DNA of 64,000 bases from Octopus sinensis (taxonomy: Eukaryota), in NCBI RefSeq assembly GCF_006345805.1, contig NC_043009.1:2914001-2978000 (forward strand). The letters are read 5' to 3'. Made by a program: the position numbers and the translations under genes. The notes under the pieces were generated by a model that saw only the letters and a list, made by a program, of their open reading frames with translations, searched no databases and was not told the DNA's origin. Below are positions 9,112 through 63,362 of the stretch, in pieces. Numbering within the stretch: position 1 is the stretch's first letter; the number at the start of each line of letters is the position of its first letter.

Positions 9112-9705
9112 GCTAGCCCGCTGGTTTAAATTGATATTAATCAAGTTAATATCAATTTTTTACCTTTCTTATTTAAATTTAAATAACCATGTTCTCTACC
9201 CGGCAGGCTTCGATGCAGAAAGTTATTTCCTGCAGAGTCATTTTCGGCTTTGGCGCGCCAAAACGAAGACATTTGAAATATACCCCCAAATATAATTGAC
9301 AGAACTGCGTGCATGTTCTCTTTCGGGTGGACTTCTCGTGTGCAGTTCTGCAATTAATATTTTCTATGACGATCGTACTGATTTGCGGACATTTACATAC
9401 GTAAATATGTAAATGGTAATAATGAAATCTGGTATGTGACTAAACATTATATTTTGCATCTTTTCATTTGTCTTGCTCGCTTTACGTTCTGGCGTTCGCC
9501 GAATTTTCTTGTGAACAATTTTTTCTTAGTTGGTCAGATCATATGGGGTCTGCATTTAACATATTAGATGGCCACCTTGTGGTCATCCCGCTTATGTGTG
9601 TGTAATATAATTTTTCTGAATCTTCAGATTTTTCAATATGCTAGGCCACTGTTTTAAATTCATATCAATCAAATTAATATCATGTTTTACCCTTATTATT
9701 TAAAT
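9112..9705 (+). mobile_element. Old retrozyme/Penelope pLTR-like element with terminal direct repeats (period about 528 bp)
   Basis: gctagcccgctgg...tacctttcttatttaaat (9112-9178) recurs as gctaggccactg...tacccttattatttaaat (9640-9705). Internal hairpins and a degenerate HHR core (ATGACGA, 9366-9372) occur in the same order as in the 62.5-63.35 kb element. Confidence 0.65.
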
Positions 9706-9928: not shown

Positions 9929-10500
9929 AGACATGCAGGAAATAAATAGACACCTTTAATTTTCCAACTTTTTGATCTAAGCGTCTTACTGTGTTTTCAG
10001 CGGTGTAGAATTTACAATGTAATTATTCTTTTTCATTCCAGCTGCCATTATATTAAAGATTTTCGAAGTGTAACCATGTACGCTTAAAAAATTCAGCAGA
10101 ACTCTCAGATTTCCAAAGAGGTCATGTTGCTGCGCAATCCGAGGCTGACCTTATCCAGCGAAAAATTGCCGAAAATCTTCAAATTTCACTTGCTACTGTT
10201 AATAGAATTATAGTACAATTCAAAAGCCAAGGAAAAGAATCAACAGATTCTCGTCCCGGCCGATCTGGGCCCTCGAAAAGGAAGCTTCCCTGTTTGAAGG
10301 GAATTGTGGAAAACGAACCCCGTTGGAAGGCTTCTATCATTGCAAAACAGCCAGAATTTAGTCCAGGAACGTGTATTACATATCTGCATAAGCTTGGGTT
10401 TTATGGACGAGCAGCTAGAAAATAACATCTCCTTCAACCAATTAATATCAAATAAAAGATTTTGAAAATTAAAGGTGTTTATTTACTTCCTGCATGTCTG
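9929..10500 (+). mobile_element. Internally deleted Tc1-like transposon retaining both TIRs and the N-terminal HTH region
   Basis: Left TIR agacatgcaggaaataaatagacacctttaatttt matches the reverse complement of 10465-10500, with TA at 10501-10502. 10093-10420 translates SAELSDFQRGHV...IQRKIAENLQISLATVNRIIVQFKSQGKESTDSRPGRS...LHKLGFYGRAARK. The DDE domain is absent. Confidence 0.9.
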
Positions 10501-34380: not shown

Positions 34381-34480
34381 NNNNNNNNNNNNNNNNNNNN
34401 NNNNNNNNNNNNNNNNNNNNNNNNNNNNNNNNNNNNNNNNNNNNNNNNNNNNNNNNNNNNNNNNNNNNNNNNNNNNNNNN
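34381..34480. other. Assembly gap (100 N)
   Basis: Run of N. Confidence 1.
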
Positions 34481-35934
34481 CTGTTTAAAAACAGTGCTTG
34501 GAAGGAAGGTGTGTAGCGTGTGTACCTCGCATTCACCACGATAGAGAGAGCTGAGCAGAGAATTTGACTCAAATTTTGCCAAATGCTTGGCGATATCTGC
34601 TTAGAGGCTTACGTAGGGCTGTAGAAATTGAATGGAGAGAAGCATATGAATGACACACAAATGGTTGAGACCTTTCCAAGATGACTGAAAAATGTCGAGA
34701 GCAGAACTGAGAAAAGTATCGCAGATGTGTGTGCAGCTATGAGAAGAAAAACGTCGAATCACCGTCCGTGGGGTCATCAGAGGATGTGCCGCTTAGTTAC
34801 TGTGAGTTACCAGAGGATATGCATATTAGTTAGGTGAGTAATCAGAGGATGTGTGCAGATTAGTTACCGTCCAGTTCAGTCCATTATTATTGCCGATTTG
34901 TGTCTGAGACTTGTGTCTGCTAAGTTTGTGCCAAAACTGCTTTCAGCTGACCAAAAAGACACTCGGGTTTCAGTTGCACAAGATCTGCTTGAGGGTGTCG
35001 AGAAGGACGAAAACATTTTGAAAATGATTATAATGGGGGTTAAGTCGTGGGTCTATGTCTATGACTCCGAAACCGAAGCCCAGTTTTTTCAGTGGAAGAC
35101 CCCAACCTCTCTGTAACCGAAGAAAGCACGAAAGGAGAAACAATATAAAGAAACTGTTGAGCATTTCCTTCGACTACATTGGTATTGTACATCATTTAAG
35201 GCGGCGATCTGCTGGCAGAAGCGTTAGCACGGCGAAATGCGTAACCGTATTTCGTCTGCCGTTACGTTCTGAGTTCAAATTCCGCCGAGGTCGACTTTGT
35301 CTGTCATATTTTCGTGGTCGATAAATTAAGTACCAGTTACGCACTGTGGTCGATATAATCGACTTGATCCGTTTGTCTGTCCTTGTTTGTCCTCTCTGTT
35401 TTTGGCCCCTTATGGGTTGTAAAGAAATAGGTATTGTTCATCATGAGTATGGTCCATCTGGTCAGACAGTAAACAAAGCGTACTACCTGGACGTCTTGCG
35501 GCATTTACAGGACGCTATTCGTCGGTAAATGCCACAATTGCATGCGTTTGGAGAGTGGCAATTTTACCATGAAAATGCACCTGCCATTTAGCACAGCTTG
35601 TGCAGCGGTTTTTGGCCGAGCAGAGTGTTTCCCAGGTTCGACACCCACCGTATTCCTCAAATCTCGCCCTCCTGCGTCTTTTTCGCCTTTCCAAAAATCA
35701 AACCCGCGTGAAAGAAAATTTTAGGTTGTCGAGGAAATCCAAGTGAATTCGACGAGACAGCTACAGATTATCACCGAAAACGAGTTCCAGGAATGCTTCC
35801 ATCAACAGAAGCAACACTAGACTGAGTGGGTCGCTTTCAAAGGGGGCCACTTTGAGAAGATTAAATGCCAAATTATTACGTATTCGAGCTTTGATCTTAT
35901 AGCACCAGTCTGGATACTTATTGATCAGACCTTG
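34481..35934 (+). mobile_element. Degenerate mariner transposon (left end in the gap), interrupted by a SINE
   Basis: Fragments EQRI*LKFCQMLG, VSAKFVPKLLSADQK, GVKSWVYVYDSETEAQFFQWKTP and FDYIGIVHH|EYGPSGQTVNKAYYLDVLRHLQDAIRR. Right TIR cagtctggatacttattgatcagaccttg|TA. Confidence 0.9.
35196..35429 (+). mobile_element. SINE family B, full length, with 15-bp TSD
   Basis: aaggcggcg..ctggcagaagcgttagcac...gagttcaaatt (B box)...gtaaagaaata. TSD ggtattgtacatcat (35181-35195) / ggtattgttcatcat (35430-35444). Confidence 0.93.
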
Positions 35935-39470: not shown

Positions 39471-40718
39471 CGAGGGGCGTTCAATAAGTAATGCCCCTGA
39501 CCCACTTCCCATAGCAGTAGAGCAACGACACTTGGCACAGTTATTAGTCTTTTCCTACATAGGAACTACCCAGACTTATGCATTTCTCCCATCGTTTGAT
39601 ACAGCTCTGGAGACCGTTTTTGTAGACCACGACGTGACTTCAGAAATCAAGGCTGCATCATCTGGGAAACGCTTTCCTTTCAAAATCAACTTCATGGCTG
39701 GGAAGAGGTGAAAATCAGAGGGTGCAAGGGGAGGAGTTCATAGTTGCACGCCTGTGCTTCTGATCTGGCGACACGCGAATTGTGGACCGGAGTGTTGTCC
39801 TGCAGGAGGAGGATGCCTTTGCTGATATTGCCCCGCCTCTTGATTTTGATAGCTTCTCTTAATTTCTTCAAAAGTGAAGCATAATAGGCTTCTGTAATTG
39901 TGGTACCCTTTGCCAGGAAATCTGTCATCACTACTCCGTCCTGGTCCCAGAAGACTGTGAGCATAACATTGTCAGCGGAGGGCTGCACCCTTGCCTTCTT
40001 TGGAGGAGGTGAGTCACGGTGCTTTCACTGCATTGACTGGGCTTTGGTCTATGGATCATAGTGATGGACCCAGGTTTTATCCTGTGTGATCAGTCTTTTG
40101 AAAAATTTTGACTCCTCTTCTTGGCACATCTCCAAATTCATCCTCGAGCACTCAACGTGTTCTTGCTTCTGGAAAGGTGTGAGAAACCTGGAAATCCATC
40201 TGGCAGACACCTTTTGCATATGCAAATGGTCATGAATGATAGTTTCCACAGACCCGGTACTAATCTTGACCTTATGGGCTATTTGGCGAATAGTTATGCG
40301 TTGACCTTCCAAAATGGCAGCCTCAACTTGACGGACAGACGTCTCATCAACGGTAGAAGGGGGCGACCAGATCTGGGAGCTGTTTCCACAGAGTTCCGAC
40401 TATGTTTGAATTCACAATGCCAGCGTTTTACAAGGTCATATGATGGGGCATCATCACCATAAGTTACTTTCATTTCATCAAAAGTCTCCCGTGGTGTGCG
40501 TCCTTTCAAATACAAAAACTAGATCACTGCTCGACACTCAACAGGCTCCATTTCACACTTGACTCAGTTCAAACACCTGTAAATCGGAAACCACAATTAG
40601 TTCAGAGCTGTAATTCACCACTTAATCTATAGAGGTATGAATAAGTGCACATGTAAAATTTCAGCGAGATCGAACGACTGCAAGTGGATCAGAGGCATTA
40701 CTTATTGAACGCCCCTCG
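39471..40718 (-). mobile_element. Near full-length mariner (irritans/Hsmar2-like) with disrupted transposase, about 40551-39543
   Basis: TA-flanked TIRs cgaggggcgttcaataagtaatgcc(c/t)ctga(c/t)ccactt. Motifs KVSARWISRFLT, LITQDKTWVHHYDP, VMLTVFWDQDGV, LLQDNTPVH and SDFHLFP, with stops and frameshifts. Confidence 0.95.
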
Positions 40719-43754: not shown

Positions 43755-43990
43755 CATTTGGCATACCGGATTGAATGCAAAAAATGTAAGAAGGTCTACA
43801 TTGGCAGCACGAATCGAACACTCAACACTCGCATTAAAGAACGCCTCAAAACATGTGCGCCCTCATTTAAAATACACATTGACTAATGTAGAAACATCAA
43901 CCAACATTTTACTGTTACCATTAAAGCGAGTGATAGAAATGTGGGCAATAGTTTCCACCCCTAGATAAATAATAGATAAGAACTCGGCAT
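43755..43990 (+). mobile_element. Penelope-like element GIY-YIG endonuclease remnant
   Basis: From 43761: AYRIECKKCKKVYIGSTNRTLNTRIKERLKT..SFKIHID*C...HP*INNR*EL, the PLE signature Y.I.C..C...YIG.T.R.L..RIKE(H). Confidence 0.85.
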
Positions 43991-44129
43991 ACAGTACTTG
44001 CCATAGAAAGACACACCCACAGACACAGAAACGAATAATTCCATACAAAAGAAGAAAACTGGCTTGCAAAGTACTATATCAGAAATTGACACCATTCACA
44101 AGGAAAGCGAAATAACCATCAAAAACAAT

Positions 44130-44377
44130 TGGAAAAATTTATTAAATTTAAATCTAAATATTATATATATCTGTAAATGTAATATGTGACAATTATTCGG
44201 TAGCCAAGATAAAACGCTGAGTTTCGGATGCCGAGGTGGCCATCGTAAAAATGCTATGAAAAATGACCGTTATACAAAGGGAGATGACTGTTATTCACCG
44301 CTATTTAGATAAATTCCTCTATTTACATAAAATCGAGGTATCTTTCCTTCTTTTGTTATCTTACTGTTTTTACCCAT

Positions 44378-56900: not shown

Positions 56901-57990
56901 TGATTCTTTGTAGGCTCCATTAATTGTTTTATTTTTGTGAATTCTGTGTCAAATAATCAATTTCCTTATTATTTATGCGGGTAGACTACATTTGACAAAC
57001 CAAACGCCATTTAAGAATGAGAATATATTTACCCTCAACAAATACAGGGCGCCAAAACAAGACAAATTCCACTTACTGAATATATGGACATATACGTGAT
57101 CATTAAGCCTCCCTAATTTCCTGTCTTCCCAATCTATCAATGTGCAGACCATATTCCAGATCAAACAAGAATTAATAAGAGGAGTTCGTTTCTTAAAGGA
57201 TATAGACCAATGTTGAACTGTCTCAAAAAAGACATGGGTAATTTGCGAATCAACATCCTATATGAAGTAATTATTGTAGAATATCTACATGTGGTCGTTC
57301 TTAGGAAAAACTAGAATTCATGTAGCAGTTATGTAACTTATTTGCTCCTCAGTATTTGATTTGCCTCACACTGTGTTAATAAAGAAATGATATGTTCAAA
57401 CATGTTCAATAAGAGGAAAGGATCGCTAAAGCATAACATTATTATTCGACAGAATAATAAACAATAATTATCTATAACACTTTCAGGTAAACAAATATTG
57501 TATTACTTATACATTCACCCGTTTGCAACTGTCATGTGACATATTCAAAGTAGATCAACTCTTATGTGAACTTCTGCGACTAACGCATGAATTTCATACA
57601 CGAACATTGCGTCATCAACAGATAGTGTTTTGAGCCACATTAGCACTTTGAAAACAAAGTATTCTTATAAGAATAGCCAGAAAAAAAAACATGTTTTGCG
57701 AGACAGCTCCATGTACTTTACACTTTTAAAAATCTGATACGAAACTGCTAGAGTGCATTCATATATGTTAAAATATAATCACATTCTGATTAACTCAAAT
57801 ATATTCTCTGTGCATTTTCAACTTAATATCTTATGTATATATATATATACAACATATAAACAAGGGCGAAAGAAAAAATGTCTAATGCCAAATATGCCGA
57901 AAATAGACACATTATCCATAACCATATAATGTATCACAATATTCACGTTACTCGAAGAAGGACGACAGAAATTTCTAACAAATTCCGTTA

Positions 57991-58051
57991 TTACCATATC
58001 GGACACGATTTCAGAGTTAGTTCATAAGAACCTTCCCTTCGTCAGTGATAA
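57991..58051 (-). ncRNA. Intact type I hammerhead ribozyme
   Basis: UUAUCA-CUGACGA-AGGG(aaGGUUCuuauGAACUaa)CUCU-GAAA-UCG(UGUC)CGA-U-A|UGGUAA. All three helices pair, the core is canonical, and the AUA triplet predicts a cut between 57997 and 57996. Confidence 0.85.
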
Positions 58052-58299
58052 ATGCGGCAAAGAAATAAATGAAATACTTACTTATACCTATGGAAAAAAG
58101 CGAACAGTAAGTCATGAGCACAACTAAGTACCCCAAATATATCCAAAATAGAAATATATATATATATACATATATATATAAAGAGATAAATATACAAACA
58201 TAAAAATATATTATCTATCTCTATATATATATGTGTGTGTGTATGTGTTTGAGCGTATGTAAATGTAAACATGTATATCTACATACGCACTTTGTATCT

Positions 58300-62237: not shown

Positions 62238-62300
<63 letters not shown>

Positions 62301-62306
<6 letters not shown>

Positions 62307-62390
62307 GAATAAGGGTAGAAATTGTAATAATCAATTAAAACCAGTGGCCTAGCGTATTAAAGAAATCCGAAGATTAAAATATTTTTACAT
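62301..62390 (-). mobile_element. 3' terminal fragment of the 9.1-9.7 kb element family
   Basis: Reverse complement aatcttcggatttctttaatacgctaggccactggttttaattg..tacccttatt aligns with 9619-9697. Confidence 0.75.
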
Positions 62391-62434: not shown

Positions 62435-63352
62435 CACAATCAAGGAATGGCCATAATAGGCCATTCACCCACTAGAAATAACAGCCAAAGCTTCAACCGC
62501 AAAATAACATTAATTCCGCAAACCAGGAGAAAATTAAAAAAACATTTACCCTGTAATTTCTTATACGGGCTTGATTTAATTTAATCAGGTTAGTTTACCA
62601 TTAAACAATAGATGAAACGGTGCATCGTATAAGAAATTACAGGGTAAATGTTTTTTTTTTAATTTTCTCCTGGTTTGCGGAATTAATGTTATTTTGCGGT
62701 TGAAGCTTTGGCTGTTATTTCTAGTGGGTGAATGGCCTATTATGGCCATTCCTTGATTGTGATGTTGAACTTATAAATGGTCTATGACTATTTAATTTTT
62801 TCCCACTAGGCCGCTGGTGGCAAATAAATTCTACGAAATTTTTTGCCACCCTATATTGATTAATTATGAATTTTCTGGTTAATTCCGTAATGGAATCGGC
62901 GGCTTATATTTGCTGCCGATAAATTTGGCGCGAGTGCGATGATTTGAAAGTTTTAGGTCAGATATTGCCGAGGGAAGGATAGAGGTACCTCGTGATAATA
63001 TCTGCTGGGATCTGGCTGTTTCTTACTGACGAATCTATCGGCCTATGGAAAATTGGCTTGATTTAATTTAATCAGGTTAGTTTACCATTAAACAATAGAT
63101 GAAACGGTGCATCGTATAAGAAATTACAGGGTAAATGTTTTTTTTAATTTTCTCCTGGTTTGCGGAATTAATGTTATTTTGCGGTTGAAGCTTTGGCTGT
63201 TATTTCTAGTGGGTGAATGGCCTATTATGGCCATTCCTTGATTGTGATGTTGAACTTATAAATGGTCTATGACTATTTAATTTTTTCCCACTAGGCCGCT
63301 GGTGGCAAATAAATTCTACGAAATTTTTTGCCACCCTATATTGATTAATTAT
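62433..63352 (+). mobile_element. Young non-coding retrozyme/Penelope pLTR-like element (inverted arm plus 1.6 tandem units, period 487 bp)
   Basis: 62568-62867 equals 63055-63352 apart from T-run length. 62433-62567 is the reverse complement of 62626-62763. Contains an intact HHR, has no real ORF, and sits in (TA)n. Confidence 0.88.
63019..63123 (+). ncRNA. Intact type I hammerhead ribozyme with long stem II
   Basis: UUUCUUA(63019-25)-CUGACGA(63026-32)-AUCUAU...AUAGAU(63033-63100)-GAAA-CGG(UGCA)UCG-U-A|UAAGAAA(63117-23). GUA triplet at 63114-63116. Confidence 0.9.
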
Positions 63353-63362
63353 AAAAAACATA

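Follow-up and report, generated by a model that had tools for sequence, protein, structure and literature searches.

What is a complete hammerhead ribozyme motif doing in a short island of the Octopus sinensis genome: is it a chance likeness, a ribozyme kept by the host, or the mark of a mobile element? The island lies near 58 kb of the window, the whole 64,000-nucleotide stretch analysed here (contig NC_043009.1, positions 2,914,001 to 2,978,000 of the forward strand), and all coordinates are those of the window. The window consists of AT-rich, animal-type DNA with many microsatellites, SINE-like repeats, mariner remnants and a GIY-YIG remnant, repeats which we take to resemble those of octopus genomes. 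Both the letters and a descriptor scan identify minus-strand positions 58051-57991 as a complete type I hammerhead motif with an open stem I and an intact core. The first-pass annotation had described a minus-strand hammerhead here in which all three helices pair, G.U pairs included, and the sequence agrees. The motif is made up as follows, with the basis of each assignment in brackets.

57991-58051, minus strand: type I hammerhead motif (letters, descriptor scan, one-mismatch scan)
58046-58051, minus strand: 5' arm of stem I, pairing with 57996-57991 (letters and descriptor)
58039-58045, minus strand: catalytic core CUGACGA, C3 to A9 (core-motif scan)
58013-58038, minus strand: stem II, with 4 pairs, a 2x2 internal loop, a 5-pair hairpin and a tetraloop
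57998-58012, minus strand: GAAA (58012-58009) and stem III (variant table, folding)
57997/57996, minus strand: predicted scissile bond after AUA (hammerhead numbering)

Stem I (58051-58046 with 57996-57991) has six pairs, two of them G.U; an outer extension by three pairs is possible in the 58-kb copy, and 58055 differs in 58-67% of the depth of the family described below. The inner helix of stem II (58038-58035 with 58016-58013) starts with A10.1-U11.1 and comprises four pairs, one of them G.U, followed by an AA/AA internal loop and a five-pair hairpin (58032-58028 with 58023-58019). Stem II alone folds well, with pair probabilities of 0.93-1.0 in three short folds. Stem III has four pairs, including A15.1-U16.1, and a loop of four nucleotides. 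The cleavage triplet AUA (57999-57997) is of the NUH type that hammerheads require, and hammerhead numbering places the predicted cut directly after it. The internal loop of stem II, the triplet and the position of the predicted cut agree with the first-pass annotation.

One explanation for such a motif would be that AT-rich DNA resembles the hammerhead pattern by accident. A search with the Rfam hammerhead models (Hammerhead_1, HH9, HH10 and others), which the first-pass annotation had proposed, speaks for it: the 58-kb motif goes unmatched at the gathering threshold and at E up to 10, even though the core consensus of the Rfam hammerhead families is the same as in the motif. A second hammerhead, in the 63-kb region of the window, is likewise missed by these models. 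The folding energy is also unexceptional (z -1.43, 18/200 shuffles), a weak score that favours chance. The minimum-energy fold is not the hammerhead, as core positions A6-A9 pair with the 5' strand of stem III, and ViennaRNA assigns the hammerhead monomer fold 0.2-1.3% of the ensemble across the 58-kb copy and its family-base variants. Against an accidental match stands the generic type I descriptor, which matches twice in the 64-kb window (the 58-kb motif and 63026 on the plus strand) and in none of 200 block-wise dinucleotide shuffles of it. Allowing one core mismatch adds one further weak match only, and CUGANGA by itself is not enriched in the window (25 seen against 19.5 expected). Two properties of the family argue in the same direction: less than 0.2% of its depth deviates at the two core positions in the variant table, and a palindromic stem III is common to the family. 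A chance match is therefore extremely improbable, and that reading is close to refuted. Pattern scans farther afield returned 46 loci in metagenomes, all chance matches and none with an upstream CUGANGA, whereas viral contigs gave 0 and 1 matches and prokaryote genomes 28, with a hammerhead fold in 0/29.

The family itself was recovered from the contigs of sequencing runs, part of the stretch being present in 20 of the 24 runs listed; no RNA run is listed as containing it. Four runs (X1, X3, X6 and X8, from four studies) were aligned to 57640-58153 at 80% likeness, and the small-share runs X11-X20 were left out of this analysis. X1, X3 and X6 are DNA-like and come from three studies and three organisms; the flank in X3 has 0 differences from the window and this run may be the same source, so that independent support comes from X1 and X6. 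X8, which is guessed to be RNA, contributed 46 contigs, the longest of them with a damaged core. In the DNA-like runs 2548 (X1), 2367 (X3) and 1644 (X6) contigs aligned, with a modal identity of 90-95%, and the depth, about 50 in the flank, reaches 1e5-7e5 across most of 57874-58153. Over the ribozyme it is 1,984-6,784 times the single-contig flank depth, a ratio that gives an order of magnitude only, as summed depth does not equal copy number. The 58-kb element thus belongs to a high-copy repeat, likely with thousands of copies, and the search for paralogs proposed in the first-pass annotation yields many of them in all three DNA-like runs. No second copy of the element is found in the 64-kb window.

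Variants at the core positions 58041 and 58045 account for 0.08-0.17% of depth among the rows listed for the three DNA-like runs, and 58033, in the internal loop of stem II, varies in 55-58% of family depth. Other changes among the variant rows listed fall in loops (58005, 58033, and 58024 in one loose end) or are one-sided; for example, 58015 turns a G.U pair into G-C in loose ends of a deletion subfamily. No two-sided compensatory change occurs among the 40 of 117 variant rows listed.

Position 58005, in the loop of stem III, separates the 58-kb copy from its relatives. There, 84-90% of family depth carries G and 9-16% a deletion, which add up to 99.6, 99.9 and 99.7% in the three runs, while the U of the 58-kb copy is found in under 0.5%. 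Either G or the deletion makes the stem III strand self-complementary. Consequently, the earlier description of stem III as non-palindromic is true of the 58-kb copy but fails as a family trait, and a monomer-type stem III finds no support for the family, in which 99.6-99.9% of depth has a palindrome-restoring state. The predicted self-duplex of the stem III strand is worth -15.0 kcal/mol with G, -13.9 with the deletion and -6.3 in the 58-kb copy; the monomer hairpin is worth -0.8 to -1.3 kcal/mol. For whole ribozymes, nearest-neighbour estimates of a dimer against two monomers are -12.4 kcal/mol with the family base and -1.4 in the 58-kb copy. By this estimate the family stem III gives cleavage as a dimer an advantage of about 12 kcal/mol. 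The U at 58005 also adds a pair with A6, and the misfold that sequesters the core becomes the minimum-energy structure; its gap to the active fold is 2.9 kcal/mol with U against 1.3 with the family base (61-mer), or 2.9 against 2.5 (76-mer). Since this U is near-private, weakens the predicted dimer and favours the misfold, it more likely reflects decay than innovation.

These data bear on the idea that the host has kept the 58-kb copy to cleave a minus-strand pre-mRNA as a monomeric ribozyme. In favour of it, core and helices have all stayed intact in a copy about 5-10% from its relatives, and its 3' junction is common to the flank contigs of all three organisms. However, one intact core among thousands of such aged copies is expected without selection, and the pairing of the U at 58005 with A6 makes the core-sequestering misfold the minimum-energy structure. 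Crude scans found no host exon either: a Pfam search of 30 of the 149 window ORFs gave transposon remnants only, and an exon scan of the window gave 0 candidates under strict settings and three weak ones under looser settings, none of them near the 58-kb element. Retention by the host is accordingly very improbable. A different role, which we consider a long shot, is that dispersed solitary copies in different host transcripts pair through stem III and cut in trans. If true, this would amount to a genome-wide, concentration-gated RNA cleavage system and, with a cephalopod as host, to a mass ribozyme family not described so far, in a transcriptome that is TE-rich and edited to an unusual degree.

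The ribozyme is one part of a larger unit, whose features are these.

57855-58153, minus strand: single copy of the ~300-bp high-copy repeat (depth jump; one copy in the window)
57832-57849, no strand: (TA)n at the 3' flank, likely insertion target (letters, inverted-repeat comparison)
58154-58232, no strand: (TA)n at the 5' flank, likely insertion target (letters, repeat scan)
57855-57873, minus strand: 3' tail that contains CCCTTGTT and leads into (TA)n (depth drop, joint 58153 to 57872)
58071-58134, minus strand: upstream hairpin of ~22 bp (z -3.6, 0/200 shuffles)

An island of about 300 bp between (TA)n tracts had been reported in the first-pass annotation, and the two tracts do flank it. 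The segments 57832-57849 and 58155-58172 of these tracts form a perfect 18-nt inverted repeat that includes their single G/C interruption. The unit falls in the 150-450 bp range, has a GC content under 50%, lacks an ORF and carries a type I hammerhead. Its self-pairing is not unusual (z -1.38, 19/200 shuffles), as measured on an aged, linear copy. In the upstream hairpin (58134-58071) the family base at 58089, present in 99% of depth, repairs one of two mismatches, and the hairpin contains a donor-like GUAAGU hexamer at 58081-58076. On the long-shot reading given above, the ribozyme of the parent element may lie inside an intron that runs from this conserved GUAAGU donor upstream to an acceptor-like tract beyond 57873. 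Two other candidate features were discarded. A partial tandem inside the copy (20-nt repeat at 245-nt spacing) is not significant (365/2000 shuffles), and a 10-bp hairpin at 57935-57906, a region with z 0.23, is no family feature, as two of its pairs are lost with the majority bases that the listed variant rows give for 57931 and 57914.

At its 3' end the 58-kb copy reads CCCTTGTT (57866-57859), with A in place of G at 57861 in 46-64%, about half, of family depth. The A form agrees with the CCCTTATT termini near 9690 and 62308, which bears out the likeness to the ends of other elements claimed earlier. Many family alignments end at 57872/57873, and the final ~18 nt may accordingly be a tail carried by only part of the copies; depth in X1 is 356k in 57874-57891 against 44k in 57856-57873. 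Three X8 contigs leave at 57873 and continue in the sense of the element with a pyrimidine tract ending in CAG (agreement 0.75). Flank contigs of all three organisms extend 10-23 nt into the 3' end of the element, and the 3' junction is thus shared among them. Beyond the 3' TA tract, at 57750-57830, about 14-28 AT-rich contigs per run align with common differences; these could be noise from low-complexity sequence or belong to a subfamily with a longer tail. At the other end, the true family 5' end may lie ~37 nt farther upstream than the 58-kb copy extends.

Joints within contigs illustrate how family copies are arranged. Six of the 15 joints listed connect opposite strands, with sides of 28-60 nt, and belong to other copies, not to the 58-kb locus. 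They are consistent with a direct copy that a 5'-truncated inverted piece adjoins head to head; in three of them the contact point is 58151-58153, where the aligned stretch ends as well. The back-joints listed mostly run into TA, three of them entering the TA tract, and one X8 contig, 38 letters different, likewise ends in TA at 57832. One head-to-tail joint, from 58153 to 57872, occurs with 37 identical letters in both X3 and X6 and implies a unit of ~319 nt. Its depth (53 and 4.6) is at single-copy level against a family depth of 1e4-7e5; all head-to-tail joints listed are near single-copy depth, and no deep back-joint is among those listed. A tandem array is absent from the 58-kb locus itself. 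For other copies, the contig joints cover arrays of units up to 40 nt longer than the aligned stretch.

Among the other elements in the surroundings is the 63-kb hammerhead. It shares with the 58-kb motif the CUGACGA core followed by A10.1-U11.1 and UA at 16.1-17, and with the 58-kb family a palindromic stem III (self-duplex -17.5 kcal/mol in the 63-kb hammerhead), a 5' piece in inverted orientation and, ahead of (TA)n, an end of the CCCT..ATT type. In contrast, the 63-kb hammerhead has a 55-nt insert in stem II, GUA as triplet and a 487-bp unit that stands in a partial tandem, while the 58-kb element is solitary. The 63-kb element occupies 62435-63355, where the partial tandem (487-bp spacing) is joined by an inverted 5'-truncated piece; this piece starts 4 nt before the predicted cleavage site, as if the ribozyme cut were the 5' end of the template. 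The two elements have no significant alignment (296-438 of 500 shuffles as good; 1757/2000), nor does the 58-kb element align with the end of a Penelope-like element (PLE) remnant at 44 kb (104-138/500 shuffles). The 9.25-9.7-kb element gives no alignment with it either, and kinship with the 63-kb, 9.4-kb or 44-kb ends was rejected. The earlier impression of a family unrelated to the 63-kb ribozyme therefore stands, and with many paralogs and no alignment to the 63-kb unit a second, separate retrozyme- or PLE-type family is upheld.

The 63-kb, 9.4-kb and 62.3-kb pieces are connected to one another via the 9.4-kb element, which aligns with the 63-kb unit (0/500 shuffles global, 11-13/500 local) and with the 62.3-kb piece (0/2000). 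The copies at 9250-9705 (plus strand) and 62300-62385 (minus strand) are older relatives of the 63-kb family with CCCTTATT ends before (TA)n, the former retaining at ~9367 a TGACGA that looks like a decayed core, with a hairpin insert behind it. Of 21 CCCT..TT-type motifs, four have a TA tract within 25 nt, against a background of ~8%, and these four are the element ends. This is suggestive of an end signal shared by the elements of the window, its A form being found in about half of the 58-kb family. The pair of ~255-bp repeats at 1651-1905 and 1987-2242, which are 81% identical and kept apart by a (TAA)n/(ATG)n microsatellite, each start with CCCTTATT. Tc1/mariner transposase remnants are seen at 39695-40518 (minus strand; Pfam Transposase_1, E 1.8e-19) and 10057-10422 (plus strand; HTH matches) and, judged by eye, at 34838-35743 (plus strand), where a SINE-like repeat interrupts. 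Homologs of the window mariners occur across many animals. Positions 34381-34480 are an assembly gap of 100 N.

Taken together, the 58-kb stretch is probably (at a probability of roughly 0.62) a solitary, aged copy of a family that inserts into (TA)n and is predicted to cleave as a dimer of two copies in one tandem transcript through a palindromic stem III, likely a PLE pseudo-LTR or non-autonomous derivative. According to the available text of PMC4209133 and PMC6765202, the hammerheads of PLEs belong to type I, have a palindromic stem III and are assumed to work as dimers; a 5'-inverted arrangement is described for PLEs in that of PMC8557442. In the 58-kb family, the hammerhead with palindromic stem III is present at family level and broken in the 58-kb copy; (TA)n insertion is apparent from both flanks of this copy and the TA-running back-joints; and 5'-truncated inverted copies stand head to head among other family copies. 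The head-to-head inversion joints and (TA)n flanks are hallmarks of PLEs. An RT or endonuclease ORF is absent beside the 58-kb copy, and no run contig was seen to connect the family to one. PLE enzymes were once present in the O. sinensis genome, judging by the remnant at 43755 and its relatives. This 5'-truncated Penelope-like remnant (43755-44376, plus strand) has a broken GIY-YIG region (Pfam GIY-YIG match, E 1.3e-4), contains no intact hammerhead and has a non-coding end with ACCC leading into (TA)n; an RT followed by a C-terminal GIY-YIG is found in five of the seven relatives checked, the long ones among 30 matches.

By analogy with PLEs (PMC4209133, PMC8557442 and PMC6765202, available text), partial tandems of 58-kb-type units would be transcribed by read-through. 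Neighbouring hammerheads would exchange stem III strands and the dimer would cleave itself after AUA, releasing unit-length RNA, which would then be reverse-transcribed and put into (TA)n by a PLE RT and GIY-YIG endonuclease. These enzymes would be supplied in trans or by a parent element. As the 58-kb copy has no nearby partner and carries a near-private loop change whose predicted effect is a weaker dimer and a favoured misfold, it is most likely a weakly active or silent relic.

Animal non-LTR retrozymes offer a related solution. The 58-kb copy would then be a dispersed monomer of a classical retrozyme whose ~320-nt unit stands in tandem arrays elsewhere, with array transcripts cut by successive hammerheads, ligated to circular RNA and copied by PLE enzymes. 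A unit of ~300-320 nt with low GC and helices I and II of 6 and 4 bp fits retrozymes as presented in the available text of PMC7229834. According to this source and 10.64898/2026.07.22.740005, as far as their text is available, non-LTR retrozymes also share with the 58-kb family the non-coding nature of the unit, thousands of copies, a type I hammerhead and the co-occurrence of PLEs. Single units are frequent in retrozyme families, and an origin of retrozymes from pseudo-LTRs has been proposed (10.64898/2026.07.22.740005, available part), so this explanation overlaps with that of a PLE derivative. The head-to-tail joint seen in X3 and X6 suits both. Yet retrozymes have arrays, circular RNA and high self-pairing (same sources), while the 58-kb locus is a monomer without tandem, the only full-unit tandem joint stands at single-copy depth with no deep back-joint among those listed, and the unit is not unusually self-paired. 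A retrozyme is consequently a possible but rather unlikely identity, which differs from the PLE derivative solely in the existence of tandem arrays and circular RNA.

A SINE-like element moved by a LINE instead of a PLE, with the hammerhead trimming its RNA from read-through transcripts, would account for the dispersed high copy number and the simple-repeat 3' flank, and has a precedent in Schistosoma Sm-alpha (PMC6765202, available text). However, a PLE better explains the inversion joints of head-to-head type, the self-complementary stem III and the (TA)n flanks on either side with the shared CCCT(T)ATT-type end, and by eye no tRNA-derived head was noticed in the 58-kb copy. Such an origin is improbable.

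A PLE derivative is thus preferred. In line with the available text on PLE pseudo-LTRs (PMC4209133; PMC8557442), the family is of type I topology with a palindromic stem III, occurs mostly as solitary, dispersed copies and shows both 5'-inverted joints and (TA)n targets. With endonuclease-positive PLEs it further shares a possible 3' tail and the presence of several unrelated families per genome. The likeness does not extend to the minimal PLE consensus (PMC4209133, available text), which has G10.1-C11.1 with an extra base between 9 and 10.1 and a minimal stem III. In the 58-kb motif, A10.1-U11.1 comes right after A9, a 2x2 internal loop divides stem II, and stem III, with four pairs and a loop of four nucleotides, can close as a monomer. 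Ribozyme activity should be assumed with caution, since no more than one of nine tested dimers cleaved in the work available from 10.64898/2026.07.22.740005.

In many animals, mussel among them, PLE pseudo-LTRs and retrozymes are known to contain hammerheads (PMC7229834 and PMC7761336, available text), and this class is so well described that a specialist would not be surprised by the 58-kb family. For Octopus vulgaris, repeat annotation recognized 190 Penelope-like families making up 6.83% of the genome, and the available portion of that source, supplement included, makes no mention of ribozymes (PMC13282606). The literature found on octopus and cephalopod ribozymes does not describe the 58-kb family, which Lunse et al. 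2017 or the supplement of PMC7229834 may cover. The 58-kb hammerhead thus likely represents an uncatalogued, Rfam-invisible family of a well-described class, probably with thousands of copies, and it places two unrelated PLE-type hammerhead families within 5 kb of each other. The family stem III is palindromic yet closable as a monomer, and the 58-kb copy is a natural palindrome-breaking variant of it. This natural pair is suited to testing whether PLE hammerheads require dimerisation and what role they play in retrotransposition.
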